Notes: generated by a model from the letters alone, not told the origin. A DNA stretch of 64,000 nucleotides from a bacterium (GCA_043798995.1 JAZDOD010000008.1:25327-89326); one strand, 5' to 3'. Positions 10,318 through 62,597 are shown, counted from the first letter of the stretch. Program-made: numbers and translations.

Positions 10318-10424
10318 AAGGGTATTAAACCCTTTGATATCAGCGCCTGCCTGCGCAGGCAGGCTCGTTCGGAAATGAATCCGCCAGCTGGCGGATTCAT
10401 TTCTCTCGCTTGCTTGATAATAAA
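10318..10424 (+). repeat. Family-2 mosaic palindromic element, copy A (modules M1-M2-M3)
   Basis: aaaccctttgatatcagcGCCTGCCTGCGCAGGCAGGCtcg contains a perfect 20-bp palindrome. It is followed by aatgaatCCGCCagctGGCGGattcatt and ctcgcttgcttgataataaaa. Related copies lie at 17023 and 46862. Confidence 0.6.
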
Positions 10425-17022: not shown

Positions 17023-17128
17023 GGTGTTAAACCCTTTGATATCAGCGCCTGCCTGCGCAGGCAGGCTCGCTCGCCCGCCTAAATTTTTTTCAAAAATTTT
17101 GGTGGGTCTCGCTCTCTTGATAATAAAA
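17023..17128 (+). repeat. Family-2 mosaic palindromic element, copy B (M1-M4-M3)
   Basis: Overlaps the pyrG stop. It contains the 20-bp palindrome GCCTGCCTGCGCAGGCAGGC and the module cgcccgcctaaattttttt…ggtgggtctcgctctcttgataataaaa. Confidence 0.6.
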
Positions 17129-20094: not shown

Positions 20095-20349
20095 TTGTAT
20101 GCTAAACCGCTTGCGAATAAGCTTATTTTGTGCTATGATCCCAATATGTACAACTGGTCAGTAGACGTCAAAAAATTGAAAAAAGACAAGAAAAAATATG
20201 CCATCTGGCGCTTGGAGCAGATGGTAAATTTTGGTTTGACTGGGGAAAAAATCAAAGCCGGAGAATTAAGGAAAAGCTGGCGCAAGTTGGAGCTGGATCC
20301 CCTTAAAAAGAAGTATTTAAAAATGCTTTTATGGCCAAGACGATCTTAA
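20095..20349 (+). CDS. Small basic protein; candidate cognate antitoxin of AbiEii
   Basis: 84-aa ORF starting at TTG (alternative ATG at 20146). It overlaps the downstream toxin gene by 19 nt and has an RBS-like AAAGG 7 nt upstream. Confidence 0.4.
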   Translation: MYAKPLANKLILCYDPNMYNWSVDVKKLKKDKKKYAIWRLEQMVNFGLTGEKIKAGELRKSWRKLELDPLKKKYLKMLLWPRRS

Positions 20350-20996
20350 GTCCGAATCAGAAAATAATTCTGGATGTTTTAAGCAGCGACGATAACCTCC
20401 GTCGTGATTTTTATCTTACCGGAGGTACGGCGCTATCCGAATATTATCTTCATCATCGCCTGTCGGAGGATCTGGATTTTTTTTCCGAGAAAGAGTTTGA
20501 TCCGCAAATAATTTCCGTATTTTTTAAAAAAAACAAATCCGCGATAGGCATCAGAAAAATTGCCTTTGAAAGCAGTTTCAACCGCAATCTTTTTTTTCTG
20601 CATTTGCCAAAAAGCGAGATTATTAAAACCGAATTTACTTATTTTCCCTTTCCACGAATCGAAAAGAAAAAAGGAGCAGACAAGCTGGCCATCGATGGTA
20701 TTTTGGATATTGCTGTTAATAAAATTTTCACCATCTATCAGAAACCGCGCTCAAGGGATTTTATTGACCTGTATTTTATTCTCAAAAAAACCGGCTGGAG
20801 AATCGAAGATATTGTGACAAAAGCCAAAATTAAATTTGACTGGCACATAGATTACCTGCAGCTGGGTAGCAAATTCTTGCTGGCAAAAGAAGTCGGCGAT
20901 CGTCCGCGGATGCTTGTGAAAATCAATGACAAAGTTTGGCAGAATTTTTTTGTCAAAGAAGCCAAAAACTTCAAGAGCAAGATATTGGTGAAATAA
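20331..20996 (+). CDS. AbiEii/AbiGii-family nucleotidyltransferase toxin (type IV TA / abortive infection)
   Basis: YLTGGTALSEYYLHHRLSEDLDFF matches the AbiEii GGTAL…HRxSxDLDF nucleotidyltransferase motif, in a 221-aa protein. Confidence 0.7.
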   Translation: MAKTILSPNQKIILDVLSSDDNLRRDFYLTGGTALSEYYLHHRLSEDLDFFSEKEFDPQIISVFFKKNKSAIGIRKIAFESSFNRNLFFLHLPKSEIIKTEFTYFPFPRIEKKKGADKLAIDGILDIAVNKIFTIYQKPRSRDFIDLYFILKKTGWRIEDIVTKAKIKFDWHIDYLQLGSKFLLAKEVGDRPRMLVKINDKVWQNFFVKEAKNFKSKILVK

Positions 20997-21043: not shown

Positions 21044-21727
21044 ATGAACACAAAAATCAAAACAGGGTTAGGGCTAATAATTATCATAATTCTCGTCACA
21101 ACGATTGGAGTTTTTGTTTGGCAGATTCAGAAAAAAGCTCAAAATCCTACTCAACCCGAGGAACAGCAGTGCACGATGGAAGCCAAAGTATGCCCTGACG
21201 GTTCATCTGTCGGCCGCACTGGACCAAAATGTGAATTTGCGCCGTGCCCGAGCGGAAATGATGTTTCTGACCTTGTTCCGAGCGAAGTCGAGGGATGGCA
21301 AACTTACCGGAATGAGAAGTATGGGTTTGAGTTTAAGTATCCGAATGGCTATGCTATCTATGATGATTATAACGGTTCGCTTGTTTATAATGCATATCCA
21401 AGCAAGAATTTGTTTTTTGTTGGTGAAAATAGGGAAGATAACATTAGATCTCCAATTGATGGCTTAATGTTTTTAGAAAATTCTGAAAGCATGAATAAGG
21501 CAATTGTGAAACTTAAAAAAAGAGATGTTTTAACCGAAGTATTGGAAGAAAAAGAATTGATTATAAATGATATGGCCGGTAAAAAAATTATCTTGACTGC
21601 TGCAATCGGATATAATGATGCTCATTATTTTTTTAGTAAAAATAATAAGAACTTTGAAATAATTTATGATGGTGATAATAAAGTTCATGACCAAATCCTC
21701 TCCACTTTCAAGTTTACCCCGCACTAA
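21044..21727 (+). CDS. Secreted/anchored paralog-family protein A
   Basis: N-terminus MNTKIKTGLGLIIIIILVTTIGVFVWQ is about 90% identical in nucleotides to 21920. Shares the WQTYRNEKYGFEFKYPN domain and the ILSTFKFTP C-terminus. Confidence 0.6.
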   Translation: MNTKIKTGLGLIIIIILVTTIGVFVWQIQKKAQNPTQPEEQQCTMEAKVCPDGSSVGRTGPKCEFAPCPSGNDVSDLVPSEVEGWQTYRNEKYGFEFKYPNGYAIYDDYNGSLVYNAYPSKNLFFVGENREDNIRSPIDGLMFLENSESMNKAIVKLKKRDVLTEVLEEKELIINDMAGKKIILTAAIGYNDAHYFFSKNNKNFEIIYDGDNKVHDQILSTFKFTPH

Positions 21728-21919: not shown

Positions 21920-23356
21920 ATGAACACAAAAATTAAAACCGGATTAGGGCTAATAATTATCCTAATCCTCGTCATAACAATCGGAGTTTTTGTGTGGCAG
22001 GCGAGGAAAAAACAACAGGGAACGAGCAATATTGATACTGGGCAGGTGAGCGAACAAGCAGATAATTATCAAAATTCAACCCAAATTGCTAATCCGGCTT
22101 CAGTCTACTGCGAACAGAATGGCGGAAAATCAGAAATTTTGAAAAATGAAAACAGCGAACCGAAGGGTTTTTGTATTTTTCCAGATGGAGTTGTTTGTGA
22201 AGAATGGCAAAATTACAGAGGAGAGTGTAGATTAAGAGATGTAAAAAAGGTTGATACAACTAACTGGAAATTATATCGAAGTGATAAATATGGATTTGAG
22301 TTCAGATATCCAGAAGAATGCGGCCAAGTTCAAGTTTCTGAATCAGAAAATGATTGTGGGCCTAGGTATAATTGCACAGGCAAGACGATGTGCATCAAAT
22401 TTTCTAATGGTAAATGTTTAGTCAGGGGCAGTTCAATTTCTCATGATTGGGAAGGTCCAGCGACAGAAGGTATCCCGCCTTTTTATAAATTTGACGGAAA
22501 CTTATGGACAACAAGATGTGATTTTAATTGTCAAATTATTAATCCCAGTAATAATATTCAGGATGCAAGAGTTCTTGGTTTTATTTTTCCTTGCTATAAA
22601 TCAGGCGAAATGTGTTTTTCGAGTGAATATTTTGAATATAACGCATGGATTAATTATGAAAATGATAAATTTGTTGGTATGAATTTTTTTGTTACGTTGA
22701 GCAATGACCAGATTATTAAACAAACAAGAGAGGCGCATATATTATATACCGATAGCCAAGACGAAGAATCTTATAAAAGGCTTAGAAATATTTTTGAAAA
22801 AACCGTTTTAAATGATCAGAATTTAAACTTTCAAATGGATTTAATAAGCGGCATTGCACAAACTTTTCATAATTATTATTTTGATAATTGGCAAACTTAT
22901 CGGAATGAGAAGTATGGGTTTGAGTTTAGGTATCCAAATGATTGGGTTATAAATACGAATAATTCTCAAAGAATTACCTTAAATAGTTCTGAAAATGAAC
23001 AAAACAAGAAGGATATAGAGAGTGGTAAAATGTATGGGGAGGGGTATTTAGAAGATATAATATTTTCATATTATAATAGTTTGTTAGATGAGCCAGAAAA
23101 TTCAGGGAACAACATTAATGCCAAAACTCTTGAAGAATTCGTTAATAAAAATCAGTTAATTTCAAATAAAGAAAAGATAAATTTTTCAGGTGATATTGCT
23201 TGGTCAATGACCCGCGGCGGATTTGGGGCATATTATACAATTCTTGACGTTCATAATGAGCATCTTTATGAAATTATGTTTGGCAGGAAAAGTAATAAAT
23301 CCGATTTATCGGCAACAGAAAACCAAATCCTCTCCACTTTTAAATTTATCCCTTAA
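21920..23356 (+). CDS. Secreted/anchored paralog-family protein B, carrying an internal domain duplication
   Basis: Same N- and C-termini as 21044. Two copies of the YGFEF(R)YP domain, at about 22262 and 22888; the second is about 90% identical in nucleotides to the paralog A copy. Confidence 0.6.
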   Translation: MNTKIKTGLGLIIILILVITIGVFVWQARKKQQGTSNIDTGQVSEQADNYQNSTQIANPASVYCEQNGGKSEILKNENSEPKGFCIFPDGVVCEEWQNYRGECRLRDVKKVDTTNWKLYRSDKYGFEFRYPEECGQVQVSESENDCGPRYNCTGKTMCIKFSNGKCLVRGSSISHDWEGPATEGIPPFYKFDGNLWTTRCDFNCQIINPSNNIQDARVLGFIFPCYKSGEMCFSSEYFEYNAWINYENDKFVGMNFFVTLSNDQIIKQTREAHILYTDSQDEESYKRLRNIFEKTVLNDQNLNFQMDLISGIAQTFHNYYFDNWQTYRNEKYGFEFRYPNDWVINTNNSQRITLNSSENEQNKKDIESGKMYGEGYLEDIIFSYYNSLLDEPENSGNNINAKTLEEFVNKNQLISNKEKINFSGDIAWSMTRGGFGAYYTILDVHNEHLYEIMFGRKSNKSDLSATENQILSTFKFIP

Positions 23357-23401: not shown

Positions 23402-23863
23402 ATGTTTTTTATAAAACAACAGAAAAACAGTGGCTTTACTTTAATTGAGTTAATTATTGTCATTGCCTTGATTGGTATTTTGGCTATTTTAGCCATACCT
23501 TTTTATCAATCGCTTCAGCTTAAGGCGGATTTGAATCAGGTTGGGGAAAAACTGGCTTCGGATCTTCGCCGCCAGCAAACCTACACTATTTCCGGCAAGG
23601 GAGCGAGCGCCTGGGGTGTGAGTTTTAATGCCGATTCCTACACCTTGTTTAAAGGCGTTTCTTTTGTTTTACGCAATCCGACGGCTGATGAAGTGGTTAA
23701 TTTGCCAAAATCAGTTCGTTTGTCTTTTCCGGCAGCGGAATTAGTTTTTAGCGTTCCGACAGGCAATACTTCATCTCCGGGCCAATTGACTTTAACCAAT
23801 TTAGTCAATAATCAGACCTTAACCATTAATATTTTTTCTCAGGGCTTGGTGCAATTAAATTAA
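23402..23863 (+). CDS. Type IV pilin-like protein (prepilin-type N-terminal cleavage/methylation domain)
   Basis: NSGFTLIELIIVIALIGILAILAIPFY is a class III signal peptide, G|FTLIE. Confidence 0.7.
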   Translation: MFFIKQQKNSGFTLIELIIVIALIGILAILAIPFYQSLQLKADLNQVGEKLASDLRRQQTYTISGKGASAWGVSFNADSYTLFKGVSFVLRNPTADEVVNLPKSVRLSFPAAELVFSVPTGNTSSPGQLTLTNLVNNQTLTINIFSQGLVQLN

Positions 23864-23882
23864 ATAGTTTAGAAATATATTT

Positions 23883-26819
23883 ATGAAAAGAGGGGGAGAA
23901 GGTTTATCTTTAATTGAGGTTATCATTGCCGTGGCCTTTTTTTCATTAGTAGCCGCGGCTTTGTTTAATTTATTAGGTGGAAGTTATATTGGTTTAAATA
24001 GTTCTTTCTCGTATCAAAAAGCTCTTTTTTACGCTCAGGAAGGCGCCGAAGCGGTTCGCAGTGTTCGCAATCAGGCCTGGAGTAATTTGCGCGCCGGAAC
24101 TTTTGGCTTAAGCTCAAATTCCGGTCGCTGGCAATTTTCCGGCAGCAGTGAATTACTTGATAATTTTTTTACCAGAAAAATAATTGTTGAGGATGTTTAT
24201 CGCGATGGCTCGGGGAATGTGGTTCAGCCGAGCGCGCCGGGAGCAGTACTTGATATTCATACTAAAAAAATTGTGTCCCAAGTTTCCTGGCCAACGCCGG
24301 GCGGAACTAATAATCAGGTTAGCTTGCCCTTTTTTGTTTCCAGCTGGCAAACTAAAAACTGGATTCAAACCGATTGGAGCGGCGGCTCGGGCCAGTCTAT
24401 TTGGAATAATGCAACAAGGTTTTTTAGTGATGACGGCAATGTTGATTACGCAACGGCCGACGAAATTAAACTAAAAGAAACAACTACCGGCTTGGTTTCT
24501 AAGACCTGGGATTTTGATTCCGCCCCTGATTATGATTTTGATCCGCAAAAAATTGAAGTTGTTTCAAGTTACGCCCAACTAAAGCCCCAAATCCAGACCT
24601 TTACCGGTCAAAGCATTAACAGTGAATTTTCTTCTGATATCAGCGGCTGGTCGTTTTATGCTTGGGATGTAGGCAGTGGCGAGGTGACGCCTCAAGGCAA
24701 TTGGCGCGCTAGCGGCGGTAATCCCGGCGGTTTTGTTGAAACAGAAATTCCCTATGATGCTAGGGGCAACAATGTCGGTGGTTATTGGCAGCAAGCTATT
24801 AATATTACTCAAGCTAATCCGGATAATGTCACTTGTGCCTTTGATTGGCGTTTACTGAATTTCGTGGCACCAAGTGGAGTCAATGAATTAAGATTTTATG
24901 TCTTTTTAGATAATTTTTCCGGCACGCCGACTCTTAATCAAGCAGTTTGGTCAAGTCCGAATTTAGCCGGCGTAATGAGCTGGTCCGGTGTGCAAAATAT
25001 CAATTGCACGGCTAAGGTTACCAGCGCCAGAACTTATTATTATAAAATTGGTATTTTCTTGCGCGCCAAAAATAAACCCACCGGCCCAATTATTGGCGAC
25101 TATGATAATAGCGGCGTTTCTTGGACAAAAACAATAATTAGCTATCCGACTGATAATCCTTCGATTAATCCCATTGTTTCCTTCAATTCTTCGGCGGTTT
25201 CTATGTGGACTGGCTTTAGCGAAGCGGCGATAAAAAATGGCGGTCAAATTTACTATCAATTATCAGATGATGACGGAGCTAATTGGTATTATTGGAACAA
25301 TAATGTCTGGGCTTTGGCCGGATCAACTAATTACAACACGGCCTCAGTTATTAATGCCAATATCAATTCTTTTCCGGCAGTTAATAAGAAAATTAATTTC
25401 AAAACTTTTTTGTCAAGTTCCGGCACTGAACAAGTGCAGCTGGATTCAGTCACAATTTCCTATCAGGTGCCGGTTTTGGGCAATTTATTTTGGGGCAATC
25501 GTTTTTTAGTCACGGCTTTGGATTCTTCATTTAGATTGACTTCCGCAAATCGGCGGCAAAGTTTGCGTTTTACCACTCAAAAAACAAAGACAATTAATAT
25601 TTTGCGCGTTTACGTTGATTTATTAAATAATCCGCCGACTTATCGTTTTGGTTTGCAAGCCGATAATGGCATCGGTTGGCCAAGTGGAGTTTATCTTGCT
25701 TATGGCGATTTAGGGCCAACTTTAGCTGGTTGGCAGACCATTACCCTGAATCAGCCGCTTAATTTAGTTCAGGGCCAAACTTATTATTTAGTTGTCAGTT
25801 GGCAATCGGGCCAAATCGGCGCCAACCGTTACATTGCTTTAAGGCGAACTTCACCGCTTAACAATCTTATTCCTTATGACCAAGCTGTTGATCCGCAGGC
25901 CAATGCCTTAAACTCAACCAATGGCGGCAGTAGTTGGCAGACCACTAATTTGCAGCCGCTTTATCAGTTGACTTTTCAGGATAATGACAGCGAAGGTAAT
26001 CCTTATGAAAATTTTATGGAAATGCCGGTTTATGGCAATTTTTTCCAAGGACAAAAGCTGACCTTGGCTGAAAATAAAGAATTTTCTGAAATCAGTTTTT
26101 ATGTCAAGCGTATCGGCAGTTTACAGCCGCTTGATAATTTATATTTCACCATTGATAATCTGACCGATAATGCTCGGCTTGTAAACGGCGTTCTGGCTAC
26201 TCCTTCAACGGTTGCCACGAATTATACCTGGCAGACCTATCAATTTCCGCAAAGAATTCATTTAGAAAAAGACAAAACCTACCGGCTTTATTTATCATCG
26301 CCCGGTTCCAGCATTAATTATTATTTAGTTTTGGCGCCAGTCACCTCCAATCAGGAATATTTTAAGACAATAACTTTTTTGGGTAAAAGCGGCTTAGCGG
26401 AGCAAAGCTCTGACCGCGGTGCCAGTTGGCAAGCTGCCGAGGAGCGGGACTTGAACTTTTATTTTGGTTTAATTCGCAAGACTTATGCGCCGCAAGGGGA
26501 GCTTATTTCCTCGGCTTTTAATACTACTGCGCCGGCCGCTTTTGATTTTTTGAGTTGGCAGGAAATTATTCCTTCGCCCAACGCTGATATCTGGGTTCAA
26601 TTGTCAACCGCGCCGAATAATGCCGGCTCGCCGGGAGTGTGGGGGCTTTGGCAAGGGCCGACCGGTCCCGGCTCTTATTACCAAAGCGGTCAGGAACAAC
26701 TTATTCCGGCTGCCAATAATCATAATGACAACCAATTTGTCCGCTATAAAATAATTTTGCTAAGCGACAGCACCGAGACACCGGTCTCTCAAGAAATAAA
26801 GGTTAATTTTACGCCGTAA
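23883..26819 (+). CDS. Giant pilin-like protein (978 aa) with a prepilin N-terminus; candidate tip adhesin
   Basis: GEGLSLIEVIIAVAFFSLVAAALFNLL is a prepilin-type motif, followed by about 930 aa of beta-rich, Asn/Ser/Thr-rich sequence. Confidence 0.65.
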   Translation: MKRGGEGLSLIEVIIAVAFFSLVAAALFNLLGGSYIGLNSSFSYQKALFYAQEGAEAVRSVRNQAWSNLRAGTFGLSSNSGRWQFSGSSELLDNFFTRKIIVEDVYRDGSGNVVQPSAPGAVLDIHTKKIVSQVSWPTPGGTNNQVSLPFFVSSWQTKNWIQTDWSGGSGQSIWNNATRFFSDDGNVDYATADEIKLKETTTGLVSKTWDFDSAPDYDFDPQKIEVVSSYAQLKPQIQTFTGQSINSEFSSDISGWSFYAWDVGSGEVTPQGNWRASGGNPGGFVETEIPYDARGNNVGGYWQQAINITQANPDNVTCAFDWRLLNFVAPSGVNELRFYVFLDNFSGTPTLNQAVWSSPNLAGVMSWSGVQNINCTAKVTSARTYYYKIGIFLRAKNKPTGPIIGDYDNSGVSWTKTIISYPTDNPSINPIVSFNSSAVSMWTGFSEAAIKNGGQIYYQLSDDDGANWYYWNNNVWALAGSTNYNTASVINANINSFPAVNKKINFKTFLSSSGTEQVQLDSVTISYQVPVLGNLFWGNRFLVTALDSSFRLTSANRRQSLRFTTQKTKTINILRVYVDLLNNPPTYRFGLQADNGIGWPSGVYLAYGDLGPTLAGWQTITLNQPLNLVQGQTYYLVVSWQSGQIGANRYIALRRTSPLNNLIPYDQAVDPQANALNSTNGGSSWQTTNLQPLYQLTFQDNDSEGNPYENFMEMPVYGNFFQGQKLTLAENKEFSEISFYVKRIGSLQPLDNLYFTIDNLTDNARLVNGVLATPSTVATNYTWQTYQFPQRIHLEKDKTYRLYLSSPGSSINYYLVLAPVTSNQEYFKTITFLGKSGLAEQSSDRGASWQAAEERDLNFYFGLIRKTYAPQGELISSAFNTTAPAAFDFLSWQEIIPSPNADIWVQLSTAPNNAGSPGVWGLWQGPTGPGSYYQSGQEQLIPAANNHNDNQFVRYKIILLSDSTETPVSQEIKVNFTP

Positions 26820-26821
26820 TT

Positions 26822-27352
26822 ATGATGAAAAATACCAAATCCCAAAAAACAAAAGAATGGCGGGGAAGATCAAAAGGATTCACCTTAGTTGAATTGGTGA
26901 TTTATCTGGCCATTGTCAGTTTTGTTTTGTTGGTTGTCAGCGGATTTTTTTATAATATTCTGCTTGGCCGCAGCAAATTCAGCGCCCGCAGTGAAATTGC
27001 TTATAATGCTAATTTTGTTGAAAAAAAATTAGCTTTTTATATTCAGCAAGCCCAAAGCCTTCAAAGCGTCAGTCCCCAAACTTTGGTTTTAAATTTACCG
27101 CTAACGCAGACCATTACTTTTAATTTTAATGCCGCCAGACAGAAGCTAACCATGCAGGAAAGCAGCGGCCCCGTGGTTTATTTGAATACTGATAAGGTGG
27201 CGGTCAGCGGCAGTTTTTCTGATCTAAGTTATTTCCGGAGAAGCAGGAATATTTTAGTTGATTTAAAAATTTTAACCAAAAGCTCCAACCCCGCGCCATT
27301 TTGGCAAAATGAAACTGATTTTAAATTAAGTTTTGAATTAAGAAGCAAATAA
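26822..27352 (+). CDS. Minor pilin / pseudopilin-like protein
   Basis: SKGFTLVELVIYLAIVSFVLLVVSG is a prepilin motif. Confidence 0.65.
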   Translation: MMKNTKSQKTKEWRGRSKGFTLVELVIYLAIVSFVLLVVSGFFYNILLGRSKFSARSEIAYNANFVEKKLAFYIQQAQSLQSVSPQTLVLNLPLTQTITFNFNAARQKLTMQESSGPVVYLNTDKVAVSGSFSDLSYFRRSRNILVDLKILTKSSNPAPFWQNETDFKLSFELRSK

Positions 27353-27355
27353 AAT

Positions 27356-27739
27356 ATGAAAATAAAGTTTAAAAAAGATAGTCAGGGTTATATTTTAATT
27401 TTGACAGTTTTAGTTATCTCGGCTGCCTCGCTGATAATTGCTTTAGGGTTAAGCAAATTACTGATTGACCAAATAGTTTTAGAGGCCGAACAGTCGAGCA
27501 GTTTTAAAGCTTTGGCGTCGGCGGAAACCTGCAATGAAGATGGTTTGGAAAAATTAAGAAACATTTGGCAGAATTATAATTATTCATTGTCAATTGATGG
27601 CAATTCTTGTACAATAAATATAAATGCCACTGGTTTGCAGGCCCAACTCACCTCAACAGGTACCAGCGGCGGTTATACTAAAAAAACAAACATTACGATT
27701 GATAGGGCGATGAATGTTGTTTTTTGGCAGCAGATGTGA
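27356..27739 (+). CDS. PilX-like minor pilin
   Basis: N-terminal hydrophobic helix QGYILILTVLVISAASLIIALGL lacking E5, as in PilX-type proteins. Confidence 0.5.
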   Translation: MKIKFKKDSQGYILILTVLVISAASLIIALGLSKLLIDQIVLEAEQSSSFKALASAETCNEDGLEKLRNIWQNYNYSLSIDGNSCTININATGLQAQLTSTGTSGGYTKKTNITIDRAMNVVFWQQM

Positions 27740-27754
27740 TTAATAAAATTATTT

Positions 27755-29371
27755 ATGTTTTTTCTTCATAAAAATTATTTTGCGATTGATATTTCAGACG
27801 AAGCGCTGATAGCGGTTAAATTAAAATCCGAAGGCAACACGTTTTCTCTTGAAAACTGGAATAGGGCCGAATTGCCGGACGGTTTGGTTACCGCCGGCAG
27901 AATTTTAAATGCCGAGGCCTTAGCCAAAGAAGTTGAAAAGTTGCTCAATTCAGCCAAGCCCTCGGCTATTAAAGTAAAAGCAGCAATTTGCCATTTGCCC
28001 GACGAGCAGGTTTATTTTCATATTTTAAAATTGCCAAAAACTCTAAACCAATTACAAATTAAAAGGATCATTGATAATGAAATTGACGAGTTTTTCCCTT
28101 TCAGCAAAGAGGAGCTTTATTGGCAGAATCGTTTGCTTGGAGTTTCTGGCGAGGAGCAGGAAATCTTGGTTACGGCGGCGCCAAAGGAAGCGGTTGATAA
28201 TTACCTCAAATTATTTAAATTTTTGAATGTAAAATTACTGGCTTTGGGCATATCTTCGGAAAGTATTGCCCGATCTTTAATAAAAGAGTATAATAATAAT
28301 GAAATATTCTTACTTGTGGATATCGGCCGGAAAAGGAGTTTGTTGGCTTTATTTGATAAAACCGGCATTAGAACTTCTTTAAATATCAATCTTGGCGGTC
28401 GGACTTTAACCGACACTTTGGTTGAGAAACTGAAAGTTAGCCCCCAGCAGGCCGAAAATCTTAAATCAGGTTCCGGCTTTGACGAAACAAAAGAAGAGGG
28501 AAGAATTTTTCTGGTTTTACAGGCAGTTTTACAGGGTTTAATCAATGAAATTAAAAAAACAATTGATTTTTATAAAAGCCAGACCGGTCAGGAGATTAAA
28601 AAAATAGTTATAAGCGGCGAAGGGCTGAAACTGGCCAAACTTGATGAATATTTGTTTAAAAATTTGTCTTTGGAAGTTAAAAAAGGCGAACCATGGTTTG
28701 CCCTGCCAAAAGAAGCTGATTCGGCTTTTTATGCCAAAGCAGTAGGGCTGGCTCTTTTGGGACAAAAAGAAAATTTAGCCAGAAGCATTAATTTTTTAGG
28801 CCGTTCCGGCGAAGAGAAAACAAAAATTTTAGAAAAATCCCAGTCATTTTTGACTAAGTGGCAGATAAAAATACCGAAAAGATTTTTTATTTATTCAACA
28901 ATTATTATTTTTTTAGTTTTTATATTTTTTTGGCTGATATTTTTTAATCAACTCCCAAAAATTGATTTAGGAAAAGAGCAGTTGCTTTCTTTGCCAGCTA
29001 ATCAATTATTAGCCAATGTCAATAAGTTAACGCTAAATGAAGGAGCTGATAATTCAAGCGCCGATATTACCGAAGAAGTTCTAAACGGAAACAATAGCGC
29101 CAGCGCCGGACAGCCAACAGCCACTTCTTCGGCGGAAGTTGAAATAACTCCGTTGACTCAGGAAACAACCAAAGTTAAAATTAACAAAACGCCAACCGGC
29201 TGGCTCAATGTCCGCCAAGGCCCGGCTATAACTTATTCAATAATTAAAAAAATTTATCCGGGAGAAATTTATTATTTGGTCTCCACCACCACTGATTGGA
29301 TCCAGATTGATTTAGGCGAAGAACTTCGTGGCTGGATTAAATCAGATTATGGAGAGATAATTAAAGAGTAA
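27755..29371 (+). CDS. PilM-like actin-fold assembly protein fused to a PilN-like TM segment and a C-terminal SH3 domain
   Basis: N-terminus FAIDISDEALIAVKL and an approximately 350-aa actin-like fold. A single TM helix (FFIYSTIIIFLVFIFFWLIFF) follows. The C-terminus WLNVRQGPAITYSIIKKIYPGEIYYL…WIQIDLGEELRGWIKSDY is a bacterial SH3 signature. Confidence 0.6.
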   Translation: MFFLHKNYFAIDISDEALIAVKLKSEGNTFSLENWNRAELPDGLVTAGRILNAEALAKEVEKLLNSAKPSAIKVKAAICHLPDEQVYFHILKLPKTLNQLQIKRIIDNEIDEFFPFSKEELYWQNRLLGVSGEEQEILVTAAPKEAVDNYLKLFKFLNVKLLALGISSESIARSLIKEYNNNEIFLLVDIGRKRSLLALFDKTGIRTSLNINLGGRTLTDTLVEKLKVSPQQAENLKSGSGFDETKEEGRIFLVLQAVLQGLINEIKKTIDFYKSQTGQEIKKIVISGEGLKLAKLDEYLFKNLSLEVKKGEPWFALPKEADSAFYAKAVGLALLGQKENLARSINFLGRSGEEKTKILEKSQSFLTKWQIKIPKRFFIYSTIIIFLVFIFFWLIFFNQLPKIDLGKEQLLSLPANQLLANVNKLTLNEGADNSSADITEEVLNGNNSASAGQPTATSSAEVEITPLTQETTKVKINKTPTGWLNVRQGPAITYSIIKKIYPGEIYYLVSTTTDWIQIDLGEELRGWIKSDYGEIIKE

Positions 29372-29400
29372 TTTTTCCCGAGAGTTTAAACAAAAAAATT

Positions 29401-29877
29401 ATGGTCGAAAAAAAATCAAAGGGTTTTACCCTGATTGAGCTTTTGATCGTCATTGCGATCATCATCATTCTGGCAGCCATTGTTTTTGTGGCCTTGAATC
29501 CGTTGCAGCGCTTTCAGCAGGCGCGTAATGCCAAAAGATGGGCCGACATCACGGCTGTGCTTAATGCCATCAAAATTGATCAAATAGATAATGGCGGTAG
29601 TTATATGGCCGCTATTGATCCTGGCATGGCTAACGGCACTTATCACGAAATTGGCACTTGCGCCAGTGGCGCGAGTTGTACCGGTCAAGCAGTAGAAGCG
29701 GGTTGCGTTGATTTAGCCGGATTAGTGACTGATGGCTATCTGGGCATTCTCCCAACTGATCCTCAAAGCGGCACAGCGGCTCAAACCGGTTATTATTTAA
29801 TGAAATCAGCTACCGGCATCATTACTGTTGGCGCTTGCGAAGCAGAGGCAGGGGAAACCATCAAGGCCTCACGCTAA
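29401..29877 (+). CDS. pilA: Type IV pilin (candidate major pilin)
   Basis: KGFTLIELLIVIAIIIILAAIVFVALNP is a canonical prepilin motif. The C-terminal Cys pair (GTCASGASCTG…GCVD) forms a disulfide loop. 158 aa. Confidence 0.7.
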   Translation: MVEKKSKGFTLIELLIVIAIIIILAAIVFVALNPLQRFQQARNAKRWADITAVLNAIKIDQIDNGGSYMAAIDPGMANGTYHEIGTCASGASCTGQAVEAGCVDLAGLVTDGYLGILPTDPQSGTAAQTGYYLMKSATGIITVGACEAEAGETIKASR

Positions 29878-29915: not shown

Positions 29916-29960
29916 TTTGATAAAACTGTCAATTTTCAAATTGGCAGTTTTATCTACTTT
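29916..29960 (+). terminator. Inverted repeat after the pilin gene; terminator or operator
   Basis: gataaaactgtcaat tttcaa attggcagttttatc, a 15-bp stem with one mismatch, then tacttttgtt. Confidence 0.35.
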
Positions 29961-29964
29961 TGTT

Positions 29965-31758
29965 ATGCTTGAAATCACCGACGAAATAAAATCACGGCTT
30001 GATATTGCTGAAGTTATCCGGGAGTATATCAAATTAAATCCGGCCGGGACCAATTTTAAGGCCCTCTGCCCTTTTCATAATGAAACAACCCCATCGTTTA
30101 TGGTTTCGTCGGAAAAACAGATCTGGCATTGCTTTGGCTGCGGCGAGGGCGGGGATATTTTCGGTTTTGTTATGAAGATGGAAAATATTGAATTTATTGA
30201 CGCCCTGCGGCTTTTGGCCAAAAAAGCCGGCGTTAGATTAACCCGCCAGGATCCGAAATTAGCCAGTTTGCGCGGCCGTTTGACCGAAATAATGAACGAA
30301 GCAATTGAATTTTATCAATATAATCTCTGGCAGGCGCCCTTGGGTCAGTTTGCCCGCGATTATTTAAACCAAAGAAAAATTTCAAAAGATTCGGCCCAAG
30401 AGTTCAAATTGGGTTTTGCACCTGCCAGTTGGGATAGTTTAATTAATTTTCTTAAAAAGAGAGGGTTTCAAGATCAGGACATTTTAGCCGCCGGTTTGAT
30501 AATTAAAAAAGATTCAGGCGCTGGTTTTTACGATCGTTTTAGAAATCGTTTAATTTTTCCGATTTTTGATGTTCATAATCAGCCAGTTGGCCTGGGCGGC
30601 CGAACTTTGGCTTTTGGCGGCGATGAGGAAAAGACCGCCAAATACATTAATACGCCCCAGACTTTAATTTACAATAAAAGCCAGGCAATTTACGGCCTTG
30701 ACAAAGCCAAGCTGGAAATCAGAAAAAAAGAATTGATTATTATAGTGGAGGGCTATCTGGATGTTATTTCATCTCATCAGGTCGATATAAAAAATGTGGT
30801 GGCGACTTCCGGCACGGCTCTGACAGCCGAGCATTTAAAAATTTTAAAGCGATATTCGCAAAATTTGGCTTTGGCTTTTGACGCTGATTTGGGCGGCGAT
30901 TCGGCTCGCAGCCGCGGCCTGGATTTGGCTTTGGCGCATGGGCTTAATGTCAAACTAATTTTAATTCCCCAAGGCAAAGATCCGGATGAATGCATTAAGC
31001 TTGATCCGAAACTCTGGCAGCAATCTGTGGCCCAGCCGCTAAATTTTCTTGATTATTATTTTGAAAAAACTTTTGCCAATCTGGATTTAAGCAAAGCCGA
31101 AAATAAAAAGAAAGCCGCCAAAATACTTCTGCCGCTTATTAATAAGATAGCTGATAAAATTGAACAAAACCATTACCTTAAAAAATTGGCTGAAATTCTT
31201 GGCGTGCCGGAGCAGATTTTGCACGAAAGTTTGAGCGCGCCGGCGGCAGAAAGGGGCAGACCTACTTTTCAGCCAGTCAGGGGCGAACGCCATCACCTTT
31301 TAAGTGAACGGATTTTGTCCCTGGCCCTAAAATACGGCCTAAACCTCGATTATTTAATAAATAATTTAACGCCAACAATGTTAGCCGATGATACGGCCAG
31401 AAAAATTTACAACAATCTTATAATTTATTATACTAATAGCAATGTTAAGGATTTTAGCTTTAATTTTGATTATCCGGAATTTAGAAATTTGCTGGCCGAG
31501 GAAGATTCTTCTTTGACCGCTTACGCCGACCAGTTGGTGCTACTGGCCGAGAAGGATTTTTTTGATTTTAGTCAGGATTTAATTCGCAAAGAAATTTTAG
31601 AAGACGTTAAATCTTTAAAGAAAGATTATTTTAAATCAGAACTCAAAAAAATAGAGGAAAAAATAAAACAGGCGGAGAAAATAAAAAATAATAATGAAAT
31701 CGAAAAACTATTTGAGCAATTTAACCAATTAACCAAACAATTAGCTTTGGTTAGTTAA
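29965..31758 (+). CDS. dnaG: DNA primase
   Basis: Zinc-binding domain [14 protein letters not shown]…[17 protein letters not shown] and Toprim EGYLDVIS. The start is taken at the internal ATG ([14 protein letters not shown]). Confidence 0.9.
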
Positions 31759-38266: not shown

Positions 38267-38687
38267 ACTCAGGTAAGTGGATGATCGCTCTCGTTTTTAA
38301 AAAGCGAGAGAGGAAAGTCCGAACACTCTCCGCTTTAGCGGAGAAGTAGGCAGTGGATAACGCCCACCGGAAGCAAGTTTAAGTTAAGAATGACTCTTAA
38401 GAGTTTTTGACTTAATCCCAAGTCCAGGGAAAGTACCACAGAAACTAAACCGCCCGCCTAAATTTTTTAAAATTTAGGCGGGTAAGGGTGAAAAGTGAAG
38501 GAGTAAAACCCTTCTCTCAGCGTGGTGACGCGCTTGAGTGGCAAACCCTGCCTGGTGCAAGAGCAAGTTTTCCCGCCGATGAGGCGGGGAAGGTAGCTCG
38601 CTTGAGTCCGACGGCAACGTCGGACCTAGATAGATGATCATCCCGCCGATGAGGCGGAACAGAATTCGGCTTATAGCTTGCCTGAGT
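38267..38687 (+). ncRNA. rnpB: RNase P RNA, bacterial type A
   Basis: P1 pairs actcaggtaag with cttgcctgagt. P4 5' strand GAGGAAAGUCCG. Also …UAACGCC…, ACAGAAAC…AACCGCC, GGUAAGGGUGAAAAGUG…GUAAAACCC, CUAGAUAGAUGAUCAUCC, and P4 3' strand ACAGAAUUCGGCUUAUAG. All match the type A consensus. Confidence 0.8.
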
Positions 38688-38736
38688 AACAATAAAACAT
38701 TGGTTAAAAACCAATGTTTTATTGTTTTTGACTTAA
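38688..38736 (+). terminator. Rho-independent terminator of rnpB
   Basis: aacaataaaacattggtt aaaa accaatgttttattgtt followed by tttga. Confidence 0.6.
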
Positions 38737-44058: not shown

Positions 44059-44979
44059 ATGTTAAAGAAAATTACCTTTCTTATTTTAATCATTTTTCTA
44101 TTTTTCATTAGTGTTAATTTTGTTTTAGCGGATAACTTTCTTCCCGGTCCTCAACCCATCCAACCGCCTGATATTAAGATTAAAATTCCCGGGATGGATA
44201 ATCTTGGTGAAATCAAACCAGCGATGTGCACTTATGACGAAACAAAAACTTGCTACCAAATTCCTTGGATTGCTAATTATATCGGCGGAGTTTATAAATT
44301 CGGCGTTAGCGCCTTGGCTCTTTTGTCGGTGATTGTCATTGCCTGGGGCGGCATTGTCTGGCTGACGGCCGGCGGTTCAGCTACACAAGTTAGCAAAGCC
44401 AAGGATTGGATTTTAGGCGGCATCACCGGTCTAATCTTGGGCCTTTCCAGTTATGTGCTTTTAGTGACAATCAATCCAGATTTTGTTAATCTAAAACCGC
44501 TTGAGGTGGCCTGGCTAGCGGGTGAGAAATTGCCTGAGATAGAACCATGGGCAGCGGGTCCGACAACGGGAACTTATTCTGATGCCAGAGCGCGTGAAGT
44601 TATTAGAATGGCTTCGGCGGGGTCAATTACAGTTAATGCGTATGAGCCTCAAACTAGTTTAAATGGTGTGCGAGTGGAAACAATCAACGGTTTGTTAAAA
44701 ATTTGGCAAGGTTGTGGTCAATGTCAGATTCAAATTAGTGGTGGTACTGAAGGCGGCTATCACAATGTTGGTGAGTTTAGCCATGGAACGGGTTATAAAT
44801 TAGATTTATCATATGTAAGTTCTTCAACGGAATTACATAATTATATTCTAAGACAGATCGGAATAACTAATATAAGCAACGTAGTTTATGACAAAACTTA
44901 TATTGGGGCGGATGGTAATAAGTATAGACTGGAACCAAGTACTGCTCTGCATTGGGATATTTGTTTTGGTTGTCCATAG
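44059..44979 (+). CDS. Membrane-anchored protein with a possible C-terminal M15-like (VanY / D,D-carboxypeptidase-type) zinc peptidase domain
   Basis: Signal peptide plus two hydrophobic helices. The C-terminus ISGGTEGGYHNVGEFSHGTGYKLDL … STALHWDICFGCP loosely fits the M15 SxHxxGxAxD … H pattern. It occupies the usual murG position. Confidence 0.4.
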   Translation: MLKKITFLILIIFLFFISVNFVLADNFLPGPQPIQPPDIKIKIPGMDNLGEIKPAMCTYDETKTCYQIPWIANYIGGVYKFGVSALALLSVIVIAWGGIVWLTAGGSATQVSKAKDWILGGITGLILGLSSYVLLVTINPDFVNLKPLEVAWLAGEKLPEIEPWAAGPTTGTYSDARAREVIRMASAGSITVNAYEPQTSLNGVRVETINGLLKIWQGCGQCQIQISGGTEGGYHNVGEFSHGTGYKLDLSYVSSSTELHNYILRQIGITNISNVVYDKTYIGADGNKYRLEPSTALHWDICFGCP

Positions 44980-46861: not shown

Positions 46862-47050
46862 TGATTCCGCCGAGTGGCGGATTACTACATGGTAAACGCT
46901 ACTAGTTTTTTTATTATCAAGCGAGCGAGACCCACCAAAGTTTTTGAAAAAAATTTAGGCGGGCGAGCGAGCCTGCCTGCGCAGGCAGGCGCTGATATCA
47001 AAGGGTTTTATTATCAAGCAAGCAAGAGTTATGAATCCGCCAACACATGA
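46862..47050 (-). repeat. Family-2 mosaic palindromic element, composite copy C (reverse orientation, nested modules)
   Basis: gtgattCCGCCgagtGGCGGattact (M2), then the reverse complement of copy B (ttattatcaagcgagcgagacccacc…aaaaaaatttaggcgggcgagcgagCCTGCCTGCGCAGGCAGGCgctgatatcaaagggttt), then a second rcM3 (ttattatcaagcaagcaag) and partial M2 (atgaatccgcc). Confidence 0.6.
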
Positions 47051-54628: not shown

Positions 54629-54639
54629 TCTTTTAGAAA

Positions 54640-54908
54640 ATCAAATAGCCACAGACAATGGGTCGCTTAAAGAATTTTAGGCATAAACGTTCCCATCGAG
54701 GCAGATATTTTCCCCTATATTTTAGAGGGTTAATTACTTTCTGTGGCCATCCACAGATTTTTTTGTTTCCCCCTTTAATAAAGGGGGATTAAGGGGGATT
54801 TTAAAAATCACTCTCTGACTCTCCTTTTTATAAAGGGAGAGAACTTAAATCCCTCTTTCATCTCCCTTTTTCAAAGGGAGAAAATAATGAATTATTTATT
54901 TTATTTTT
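54640..54908 (+). promoter_or_regulatory. rplJ 5' leader with an attenuator-like hairpin and three family-3 GC hairpins
   Basis: ctgtgg ccat ccacag followed by attttttt (54741-54764). Hairpins ccccctttaataaaggggg, tctcctttttataaagggaga and tctccctttttcaaagggaga. This is the usual position of the L10(L12)4 autoregulatory leader. Confidence 0.35.
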
Positions 54909-61746: not shown

Positions 61747-61848
61747 GCTCAAAACTCAAAATCTAAAACATTTGGCATTGAGATTTTGGATTTTCCGCCA
61801 GAGGCGGATCTGCCCCTGGCACGAGATTTGACATTTGAGCTTTGGATT
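61747..61848. repeat. Long imperfect inverted repeat with an internal CCGCC-N3-GGCGG hairpin, upstream of tRNA-Tyr
   Basis: ccaagctcaaaactcaaaatct … agatttgacatttgagctttgg forms the arms. The loop contains ttccgccagaggcggatct. Confidence 0.35.
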
Positions 61849-61867
61849 TAAGGTCTAATTTAATATT

Positions 61868-61950
61868 GGGTAGGTACCAAAGCGGTCAACTGGACCTGAC
61901 TGTAAATCAGGTGGCTTCGGCCTTCGGGGGTTCGAATCCCTCCCTGCCCA
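61868..61950 (+). tRNA. tRNA-Tyr (anticodon GTA), type II with long variable arm
   Basis: Acceptor gggtagg/cctgccc with one G-U pair. 3-bp D stem. Anticodon stem cctga/tcagg with loop cuGUAaa. Variable arm ggcttcggcc. T arm ggggg TTCGAAT ccctc. Discriminator A; no encoded CCA. Confidence 0.8.
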
Positions 61951-61952
61951 CT

Positions 61953-62597
61953 ATGCTTTACGCTTTTTTTCAAAAAACAATTTGGCCCATTGGGAGGGCG
62001 CTTTTTTGGTTTTTCCTGCATCTTCGCGTTGAAGGCGGAGAAAACTTCCGAAATCCCCGCCAGCAAATACTTGTCATCTGCAATCACCGCAATTTAATTG
62101 ATTCTTATTTAGCCAGCGGTTCCCTTCCTTTTCGCTATTTTTTATTGTCCAGAACTTTTCGTTACCCAGCTTTAAAAAAATATACTAACTCGCCATTTTA
62201 TTGTTTTATTCGTCTTTTTGGCTCTTATCCGATAGAAATTGGGGTTGGCTATGAGAAAGCCTTGGTCTACACTGAGAGGTTAATTAAAAAAGGGCAGAAC
62301 ATTTTTATCTTTCCCGAAGGCAAGGTTGCTAAAGACGGTCATCCTTTGCCCGCCAAACCCGGCGTGGCCTATTTGGCCAAAAAATATAATTTGCCAATTT
62401 TACCAATAGCAAGCGAAGGCACCCGCGGCCTTAACCCCGTTAGGTTTTTTTTAAGAAAAAATCGCGTTCACGTTCAAATTGGACCAAAATTTTATTATCA
62501 GGATGTAGTTCACGAAAACGACGACGTTAAAGTAGCAGCGCAAAAAATTATGGATCGAGTAAATCAGATGCTGTATCATAATAAATTAAAAATTTAA
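61953..62597 (+). CDS. plsC: 1-acyl-sn-glycerol-3-phosphate acyltransferase-like (LPLAT family)
   Basis: H(X)4D motif CNHRNLIDS, FPEGKV motif and an N-terminal TM helix. The ATG at 61953 starts 3 nt after the tRNA; the track's longer ORF overlaps the tRNA and is rejected. Confidence 0.6.
   Translation: MLYAFFQKTIWPIGRALFWFFLHLRVEGGENFRNPRQQILVICNHRNLIDSYLASGSLPFRYFLLSRTFRYPALKKYTNSPFYCFIRLFGSYPIEIGVGYEKALVYTERLIKKGQNIFIFPEGKVAKDGHPLPAKPGVAYLAKKYNLPILPIASEGTRGLNPVRFFLRKNRVHVQIGPKFYYQDVVHENDDVKVAAQKIMDRVNQMLYHNKLKI

Follow-up and report, generated by a model that had tools for sequence, protein, structure and literature searches.

A 64-kb stretch of bacterial DNA (GCA_043798995.1 JAZDOD010000008.1:25327-89326; 64,000 nucleotides, hereafter the window) carries at positions 23402-29877 a compact set of pilus genes that probably represents the pilin and alignment-protein genes of a type IVa-like pilus operon from a Candidate Phyla Radiation (CPR) bacterium with a monoderm-type envelope, the two unusual members of which would be a tip adhesin and a wall-anchored PilM fusion. 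The fusion, a 538-amino-acid (aa) protein, combines a PilM domain, a PilN-type N-terminal motif, a transmembrane helix and a C-terminal SH3 domain in a single chain, and the putative adhesin is a 978-aa pilin that carries large additional modules. An earlier sequence-only reading, generated by a model, had recognised a type IV pilus locus here, which the profile matches of the pilins and of PilM support. The six open reading frames (ORFs) that it described are present on the + strand with exactly the coordinates and lengths given (ORF list, 20-33 kb), separated by gaps of 19, 2, 3, 15 and 29 bp. It placed five consecutive pilin genes before PilM; in fact, the PilM fusion lies between the fourth pilin-like gene and a fifth pilin. 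The features of the locus are listed below, with a slash marking the cleavage site of the pilin N-termini.

23402-23863, + strand: GspH/PilH/ComGD-type minor pilin, 153 aa; N-terminus ...NSG/FTLIELIIVIALIGILA
23883-26819, + strand: modular minor pilin in the GspI/PilV position, 978 aa; a pilin module and six all-β modules
23883-24347, + strand: pilin module of the 978-aa protein (class III signal, α1 helix, four-stranded sheet)
26484-26810, + strand: conserved C-terminal β module of the 978-aa protein (aa 868-976)
26822-27352, + strand: GspJ/PilJ/ComGF-type minor pilin, 176 aa; N-terminus ...SKG/FTLVELVIYLAIV
27356-27739, + strand: pilin-like protein without Glu5, 127 aa; N-terminus ...SQG/YILILTVLVISAASL; putatively PilX/GspK-type by position and motif
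27755-29371, + strand: fusion of PilM, PilN N-terminal motif, transmembrane helix, linker and SH3b, 538 aa
28787-28801, + strand: INFLG motif of the fusion (aa 345-349), the predicted equivalent of the PilM-binding INLLP peptide of PilN
28877-28945, + strand: single transmembrane helix of the fusion (aa 375-397), with a K/R-rich N-terminal flank
29168-29365, + strand: C-terminal SH3b of the fusion (aa 472-537), predicted to be extracytoplasmic
29401-29877, + strand: probable major pilin, 158 aa; N-terminus ...SKG/FTLIELLIVIAII; four Cys in the C-terminal half
29919-29954, + strand: hairpin (16-bp stem) followed by a T-rich tail, the likely terminator of the pilus operon

PilM, a PilN-type motif and an SH3 domain in one chain

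Residues 10-321 of the 538-aa protein match the TIGR01175 pilM model with 146 bits against a cutoff of 133, and the PilM_2 family (PF11104) matches with an E-value of 3e-29 (102 bits against 27). At the other end of the chain, residues 484-532 match SH3_3 (PF08239) with 29.5 bits against a gathering threshold of 27, and SH3_4 is also matched. Structure prediction of 27755-29371 with AlphaFold2 (AF2) yielded the same parts: a PilM fold with a predicted local distance difference test score (pLDDT) of ~90 up to residue ~345, a transmembrane helix at residues 375-397, a disordered region at residues 400-469 and the strands of an SH3 barrel at residues 472-537 with a pLDDT of 80-90. The linker between the transmembrane helix and the SH3 domain comprises 74 aa and is disordered. 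The top Foldseek matches of the model were the PilM structures 5EOX, 5EOU, 2YCH and 3JC8 (E ~1e-25; template modelling score (TM-score) to the target 0.65-0.75), with FtsA and MreB ranking below them. The PDB sequence matches of the SH3 domain were the SH3 domains of a cell-wall hydrolase (2KQ8) and an enterotoxin (2KRS).

The profile alignment places a PilN-type motif directly after the PilM fold. The family profile segment 'kesinllgrke' aligns with 'MARINLLPWRE' of 5EOU across the junction between PilM and PilN residues 1-12, so that SINFLGRS of the window falls on the PilN peptide ARINLLPW, and an INLLP-like motif is found at the equivalent site in approximately half of the related cluster representatives. 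On these alignments and the predicted structure, the 538-aa protein is a natural PilM joined to the N-terminal motif of PilN and a transmembrane helix.

The sequence-only reading had described the architecture as one normally divided among PilM, PilN and PilO. The single chain of PilM, PilN-like N-terminal motif, transmembrane helix and SH3 domain is genuine according to both the profiles and the AF2 model, and the INLLP-type motif and the helix account for part of PilN; the periplasmic domains of PilN and PilO, and any PilO equivalent, are absent. The Pfam model of PilN (PF05137) did not match the fusion, in which neither the periplasmic coiled coil nor the ferredoxin-like domain was found. 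T2SSL (PF05134) likewise gave no match, the periplasmic ferredoxin-like domain being absent, and it matched only 2 of 75 sampled relatives. No PilO equivalent was detected in the fusion, in the window or beside pilM in the related operons surveyed, and no separate pilN or pilO lies 3' of pilM in the window or in those operons. A PilN-like domain hidden between the transmembrane helix and the SH3 domain of the window's fusion was also considered and ruled out, since this interval holds only the disordered linker. An assignment to a type II secretion system (GspG-K with GspL) was rejected because neither T2SSL nor a secretin was found, the organism is of the monoderm type and the PilM-specific models score above their cutoffs.

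The architecture recurs in independent assemblies

An exhaustive profile search retrieved 42,889 PilM relatives. Among the 153 closest sequences, which comprise the 148 best cluster representatives and five close homologues, 113 combine PilM, a transmembrane helix and a C-terminal SH3 domain, and comparative genomics thus bears out the conservation of the fusion. The SH3 domain was present in 7 of 10 proteins of a first homologue set, and Pfam identified SH3_3 in 56 of 75 sampled representatives; GW or LytR_C domains replace it in rare relatives. Independent assemblies carry the same architecture at 93, 91, 62, 55, 32 and 30% identity to the window's protein, and over 100 cluster representatives preserve the fusion at identities between 93% and ~25%. 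Because of this conservation, the fusion does not stem from a sequencing frameshift. The sequence-only reading had itself raised an artefactual origin of the ORF at 27755, by frameshift or assembly error, and we regard its probability as negligible: nothing speaks for it beyond one relative (L036, 6827-8474) in which PilM-SH3 is encoded by two overlapping ORFs of 184 and 388 aa, as a frameshift, a pseudogene or an assembly error would produce, showing that such cases do occur, and the recurrence of the architecture in independent assemblies and in most of the closest sequences speaks against it.

The spacer between the transmembrane helix and the SH3 domain is bimodal in length, with ~80 relatives having short linkers like that of the window and ~30 having an extra domain of ~150 aa. 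In these longer relatives (P0006, P0140, P0182, P0252 and others) the extracytoplasmic domain is conserved, with the consensus ...LKIPVA...EYT.DRV.GRIIE...WL.YSE.DA..LFL.EVDKLN..., and matched nothing in Pfam or among PDB sequences; a PilN-like domain that has diverged strongly is one possibility, a novel domain another. The SH3 type of the fusion also terminates ORFs of 1686-3544 aa on contigs of CPR metagenome-assembled genomes (MAGs; L042-L048 and L052), and its presence in both the fusion and these very large ORFs suggests, at the level of sequence, a common C-terminal surface-anchoring module in CPR. Full-text literature searches on PilM with SH3 together with Patescibacteria or peptidoglycan returned nothing relevant; within the literature open to such searches, the PilM-SH3b architecture has no description, although databases contain it.

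One relative, P0007 (30% identical to the window's fusion), lies on a 184-kb metagenome contig (L001) in an operon with the order pilB(562)-pilC(439)-142-142-294-137-PilM/SH3(511)-pilin(148), where the numbers are lengths in aa. The pilin and PilM proteins of L001 are the reciprocal best matches of the window proteins, position by position.

A modular pilin in the GspI/PilV position

Type IV pilins are recognised by a short positively charged leader that ends in Gly and is followed by a hydrophobic residue at +1, Glu at +5 and ~20 hydrophobic residues, and they fold into a long N-terminal α1 helix packed on an antiparallel β-sheet. The 978-aa protein starts with MKRGGEG/LSLIEV and has Glu at +5, a residue that at least 90% of the 54 aligned homologues share. 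Its isolated N-terminus matches N_methyl below threshold (E 0.015), and a match to gspI is faint. Its counterpart in L001, the second minor pilin there, is a 142-aa protein that aligns only with residues 1-155, at 28% identity (E 5e-19). The AF2 model of 23883-26819 (pLDDT 87.6), the one model by which the fold of a pilin of this locus was checked, consists of a helix at residues 10-64 and sheet strands at residues 72-153 (pLDDT ~90); this 55-residue α1 helix and its β-sheet constitute a pilin fold, after which only β modules follow. The model and the homologue alignments support a pilin with large additional modules.

A total of 98 homologues, ranging from 594 to 1690 aa, were found; where the source gives a name, it is that of a Patescibacteria lineage (Falkow-, Magasanik-, Uhr- and Roizmanbacteria), and PilV, PulG or prepilin appears as the label of several homologues. 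Local alignments show that the pilin part and the adjoining linker (aa 1-235) are conserved and are followed by a separate module (aa 245-410) and a ~105-aa module (aa 420-527) that occurs in multiple copies in relatives. The next region (aa 530-865), which contains two DUF4082-like modules, is variable and common only to the closest ~16 homologues. The C-terminal module (aa 868-976) is present in ~87 of the 98 homologues, whatever middle modules they have, and also in the I-position genes of many related operons. Across the surveyed operons, the gene at the GspI/PilV position ranges from 142 to 2017 aa.

The sequence-only reading held that the prepilin helix was the sole recognisable feature of this protein, which is only roughly so given a sub-threshold DUF4082 match and a confident all-β multidomain model. 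When the seven modules were scanned singly with Pfam, only N_methyl and DUF4082 (PF13313; residues 562-650, 27.2 bits against a cutoff of 28.4) appeared, both below threshold, and precomputed DUF4082 matches are listed for several homologues. A PDB profile search with the family alignment gave faint pilin-helix matches only. Modules D and E are weakly alike, and the protein contains three Asp-box-like motifs. Foldseek detected a generic β-sandwich likeness to phage baseplate, tail-fibre and host-specificity proteins, and further likeness to carbohydrate-binding modules (CBMs) and gingipain adhesin domains. The best single domains reached TM-scores of 0.5-0.65; the whole-chain score was low, as expected for a beads-on-a-string chain.

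By its predicted structure, the 978-aa protein belongs to the described class of modular pilins, in which a pilin module is joined to non-pilin modules. Such pilins are widespread, with CPR examples included, and have been argued to be tip-located and adhesive (PMC8179133). The type IV pili of CPR are described as mediating host binding, for which Saccharibacteria need PilX2, a minor pilin that bears an additional C-terminal domain and is the candidate adhesin (PMC12206443). By analogy with these proteins, the 978-aa pilin may act as an adhesin. The functional reading in the sequence-only analysis, a streamlined alignment complex with a tip adhesin for attachment between cells, is plausible and agrees with what has been published on Saccharibacteria and modular pilins. 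A PilY1-type identity was rejected, as neither Pfam nor the fold search gave a propeller match and the protein is a pilin.

The small pilins

Canonical prepilin N-termini above the Pfam N_methyl cutoff were found in the 153-, 176- and 158-aa proteins, with the cleavage motifs G/FTLIE, G/FTLVE and G/FTLIE, respectively. The 153-aa protein (N_methyl E 2.3e-8) also matches TIGR01708 gspH (E 1.2e-8) and ComGD (E 3.2e-8, residues 10-142) and is 39% identical to the first minor pilin in the syntenic operon of L001. The 176-aa protein (N_methyl E 3e-7; ComGF E 7e-5) shares 33% identity with the third minor pilin of L001. For the 158-aa protein (N_methyl E 1e-8), the top match was gspG (E 2.7e-8), and its identity to the post-PilM pilin of L001 is 39% over the full length. 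All of these gspH/ComGD, ComGF and gspG matches lie below the cutoffs of the equivalog models. A pilin of 143-192 aa comes after PilM-SH3 in most surveyed loci, and the 158-aa protein is probably the major pilin.

The 127-aa protein has G/YILIL at its N-terminus, and a Pfam scan matched no family. It is 29% identical, over the full length, to the 137-aa gene product at the equivalent position in L001, and the motif G-[YFV]-[IVA]-A/L-L recurs in the gene immediately 5' of PilM in most related loci. Because it lacks Glu5, we liken this protein to PilX/GspK rather than to a canonical prepilin, an assignment that its motif and position suggest. The four minor pilins would then correspond to the H-I-J-K set tabulated in PMC10191384.

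Gene order in relatives and in the window

A scan of GTDB species representatives identified 27 loci with full-length PilM-SH3 genes, most of them in MAGs labelled as Patescibacteria lineages and one with an automatic Gammaproteobacteria label; since the search patterns targeted the SH3 domain, the set favours loci whose proteins carry SH3. Wherever the flanking sequence sufficed, the order pilB-pilC-H-I-J-K-PilM/SH3-pilin recurred in the surveyed loci. The arrangement is not peculiar to the window genome and follows the standard layout of a widespread Patescibacteria operon. The locus is one typical copy of this CPR pilus operon, which makes the finding in the window itself an ordinary one. 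Five loci (L029, L039, L044, L045 and L052) carry automatic third-party annotation (TPA) labels of 'uncultured Gammaproteobacteria' or 'Bdellovibrionales', although they have a CPR-type operon or SH3 proteins, and these labels are probably wrong.

In the two nearest relatives with upstream sequence, DeMMO5_21 (62-74% identity) and L054 (55-59%), pilC lies directly 5' of the first minor pilin. At a 93%-identical locus (L053) every gene has the same length as in the window, which indicates purifying selection. The window itself holds no PilB, PilT, PilC, PilD or PilQ, as the sequence-only reading had said: pilB, pilC, pilD, pilT and a secretin were not among its ORFs of at least 110 aa, a tblastn search of the window with the PilB and PilC of relatives gave just one short repeat-derived match, and a Pfam scan of ten uncharacterised window ORFs found nothing pilus-related above threshold in those ten. 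A search with the PilC of the closest relative gave no match attributable to this MAG.

The genes 5' of the first minor pilin in the window encode an AbiE toxin-antitoxin pair and two secreted proteins that are paralogues of each other. These secreted-protein genes are unrelated to the pilus; the operon has been rearranged in the window genome, and the gene set is separated from pilB and pilC. The paralogues, which are secreted or membrane-anchored and occupy 21044-21727 and 21920-23356, where relatives have pilC, share nearly identical N-termini (MNTKIKTGLGLIIII...) and similar C-terminal motifs (ILSTFKF.P). PsbP-like domains are present in both, with an additional DUF333 in the longer protein (21920-23356). 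The ORF at 20095-20996 encodes an AbiEii-type nucleotidyltransferase toxin (PF08843, E 2e-14), and a small ORF that overlaps its 5' end could be the antitoxin.

Other features of the window

The GC content of the window is ~37%, typical of Patescibacteria/CPR. Outside the pilus locus it carries housekeeping genes (murA, pyrG, def, dnaG, rpoD, gap, recJ, mraY, murD, ftsW, uvrABC, RNase P RNA and valS). The terminator-like hairpin behind the last pilin sits 5' of the probable true dnaG start: the listed dnaG ORF begins at a TTG within the hairpin (29917-29970), and the start is probably Met17, giving 597 aa, the length called in L053. Further elements are a class A RNase P RNA (38269-38689, 219 bits), a ribosomal protein L10 leader (54631-54774) and a tRNA-Tyr(GTA) (61868-61951) that is overlapped by a spurious TTG ORF (61842-62597). 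For a 306-aa membrane protein encoded 3' of ftsW (44059-44979), the T4SS_pilin model (PF18895) scored 18.9 bits (E 0.0016), which is below its cutoff of 26.6.

The GC-rich palindrome CCTGCCTGCGCAGGCAGG occurs in exactly three exact copies in the window, with short elements at 10346-10398, 17048-17065 and 46866-46989, and a second hairpin, GAATCCGCC..GGCGGATTC, lies beside the CCTGCCTGCGCAGGCAGG element. In the window, these palindromic elements are placed intergenically or at 5' ends. In DeMMO5_21 (L003/L005), the second hairpin element is inserted in frame in pilC and in the PilM fusion, the pilC insertion amounting to 29 aa ('...EMNPPAGGFIS...') relative to the PilC of L054. The elements look like a REP/MITE-like (repetitive extragenic palindrome/miniature inverted-repeat transposable element) family that is tolerated in coding regions.

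A model for the pilus and its alternatives

In the mechanism that we propose, a prepilin peptidase encoded elsewhere would cleave the pilins, and the four minor pilins would assemble into a priming complex, which would come to lie at the tip of the pilus. The I-type subunit, with ~820 aa of β-sandwich, lectin/CBM-like modules on its pilin module, would be a variable, glycan-binding tip adhesin. The steric bulk of these modules would allow it to sit only at the tip, and the variable size and module content of the I-position gene (142-2017 aa) are as expected of a determinant of host or ligand specificity. PilM normally contacts PilB, PilT and PilC. The actin-like PilM domain of the fusion would sit beneath the membrane with the PilN-type INFLG peptide filling its binding groove in cis, and the transmembrane helix and the flexible 74-aa linker would place the SH3b domain on the outside, an orientation assigned because K/R-rich residues precede the helix. 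There, SH3b would most likely bind the cell's own peptidoglycan and so fix the pilus motor in the wall, substituting for the periplasmic domains of PilN and PilO of other type IVa systems.

Peptidoglycan binding is assigned to SH3b by analogy, and the domain might instead stand in for the periplasmic domains of PilN and PilO by mediating contacts with pilins or the platform, or it might regulate extension by sensing or binding a wall or host polymer. SH3 domains are generic peptide- and ligand-binding modules, and the extra 150-aa domain before SH3 in ~30 of the 113 relatives indicates that in some lineages the extracytoplasmic part is more than a tether. We nevertheless consider a role other than anchoring rather unlikely, because the closest solved SH3 sequences come from cell-wall hydrolase-type proteins, the same SH3 type ends very large CPR surface proteins and the occasional swap for the wall-associated GW or LytR_C modules points to wall binding; the wall anchor is further preferred because the genome encodes peptidoglycan synthesis genes (murA, mraY, murD and ftsW). 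It is quite unlikely that the machine is mainly a competence pilus or pseudopilus for DNA uptake, with the minor pilins as equivalents of ComGD/E/F/G and the large subunit capturing DNA or another substrate. ComGD and ComGF are the best equivalog-type matches of two small pilins, and CPR depend on imported nucleotides, with pili linked to competence (PMC6744442); however, the ComG matches fall far below the curated cutoffs, Com systems are without PilM/N/O (PMC10191384) whereas PilM is central here, and the extra modules of the large subunit resemble lectin, CBM and phage receptor-binding folds rather than known DNA-binding pilin modules. A decaying remnant, which a rearrangement cut off from pilB and pilC and which has ceased to assemble a filament, appears very improbable. 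The two genes are adjacent in relatives yet absent from the 23 kb upstream in the window, and the homology search did not recover this MAG's pilC, but all six ORFs are intact, including one of 2.9 kb, and L053 retains all gene lengths under apparent purifying selection. Moreover, pilus genes are commonly spread over several loci (PMC12206443), and only 64 kb of the genome are visible.

Several points weigh against a pilus operon with a tip adhesin and a wall-anchored PilM fusion. With no pilB, pilC, pilD or pilT in the 64-kb window and this MAG's pilC not found by homology, function in the window genome depends on genes outside the view, and the genes 5' of the first minor pilin differ from those of relatives. 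Neither SH3b nor the β modules have a known ligand; the structural matches of the 978-aa protein are of low TM-score and of a generic β-sandwich kind, and most of its modules belong to no Pfam family. The INFLG peptide might dock in trans instead of in cis, and a separate pilN/pilO could be encoded elsewhere in the genome, the PilM, PilN and PilO families having been reported for CPR in general (PMC6744442). Beyond the window, we put forward as a tentative possibility that in a large part of the Patescibacteria a single PilM-PilN(stub)-transmembrane-linker-SH3b protein replaces PilM, PilN and PilO and couples the motor to peptidoglycan, and that the I-position pilin is a cassette-like, fast-evolving scaffold (142 to >2000 aa) whose interchangeable β-sandwich modules determine the host surface to which the episymbiont binds.

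Relation to known systems

The locus shares prepilin-type major and minor pilins, PilM and the lack of a secretin with the type IVa systems of monoderms and Saccharibacteria (the pil locus of S. sanguinis and the type IV pilus loci of N. lyticus TM7x), as well as a minor pilin with extra domains as a candidate adhesin (PMC12206443, PMC8179133). In S. sanguinis and N. lyticus TM7x, PilM, PilN and PilO are separate proteins, whereas the window has PilM with only the PilN motif and a transmembrane helix, ending in SH3b. Single chains with a PilM-like, actin-fold cytoplasmic domain and a transmembrane helix are also known from GspL/PulL, a PilM-PilN fusion (PMC10191384, PMC4471445), and from PilMN of Clostridioides difficile (PMC6143707). 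Both GspL and PilMN retain a PilN-like periplasmic domain of ferredoxin fold and have GspM or PilO as a partner; the window's fusion has a disordered linker and SH3b instead. The engineered P. aeruginosa PilM:PilN(1-12) chimera 5EOU resembles it in that the C-terminus of PilM is joined directly to the INLLP peptide. That chimera is a laboratory construct without a membrane or external part, whereas the window's fusion is natural and continues to a transmembrane helix, linker and SH3b.

The 978-aa protein shares an N-terminal pilin module followed by bulky modules with the modular pilins PilB and PilC of S. sanguinis, CofB of enterotoxigenic Escherichia coli, ComZ of T. thermophilus and the CPR examples, for which a tip position is expected and lectin-like folds are frequent (PMC8179133, PMC9934059). 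Compared with these catalogued proteins it is much larger and multi-module, with ~820 extra residues that are mostly without a Pfam signature, and it occupies the GspI/PilV slot of an H-I-J-K set and has a C-terminal module that is conserved across its family. The PilY1/PilC adhesins of diderm type IVa systems are likewise large, tip-associated and encoded among minor pilin genes. PilY1, however, is not a pilin and has a C-terminal β-propeller, whereas the 978-aa protein is a pilin and has no PilY1 match.

Significance

Among the attachment and motility devices of host-dependent CPR bacteria, type IV pili have the best support, and functional work on them comes almost wholly from Saccharibacteria, which have separate PilM, PilN and PilO proteins. 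The interest of the present locus lies at the level of the families, namely the PilM-PilN(stub)-SH3b protein and the hypervariable modular pilin of the I position, rather than at that of the window. If PilM-SH3b does replace PilN and PilO in many CPR lineages, these bacteria would build and anchor their pili in the monoderm-type envelope in a simpler and different way. Because its length varies to an extreme degree within an otherwise conserved operon, the modular pilin of the I position is a concrete candidate for a determinant of host range.

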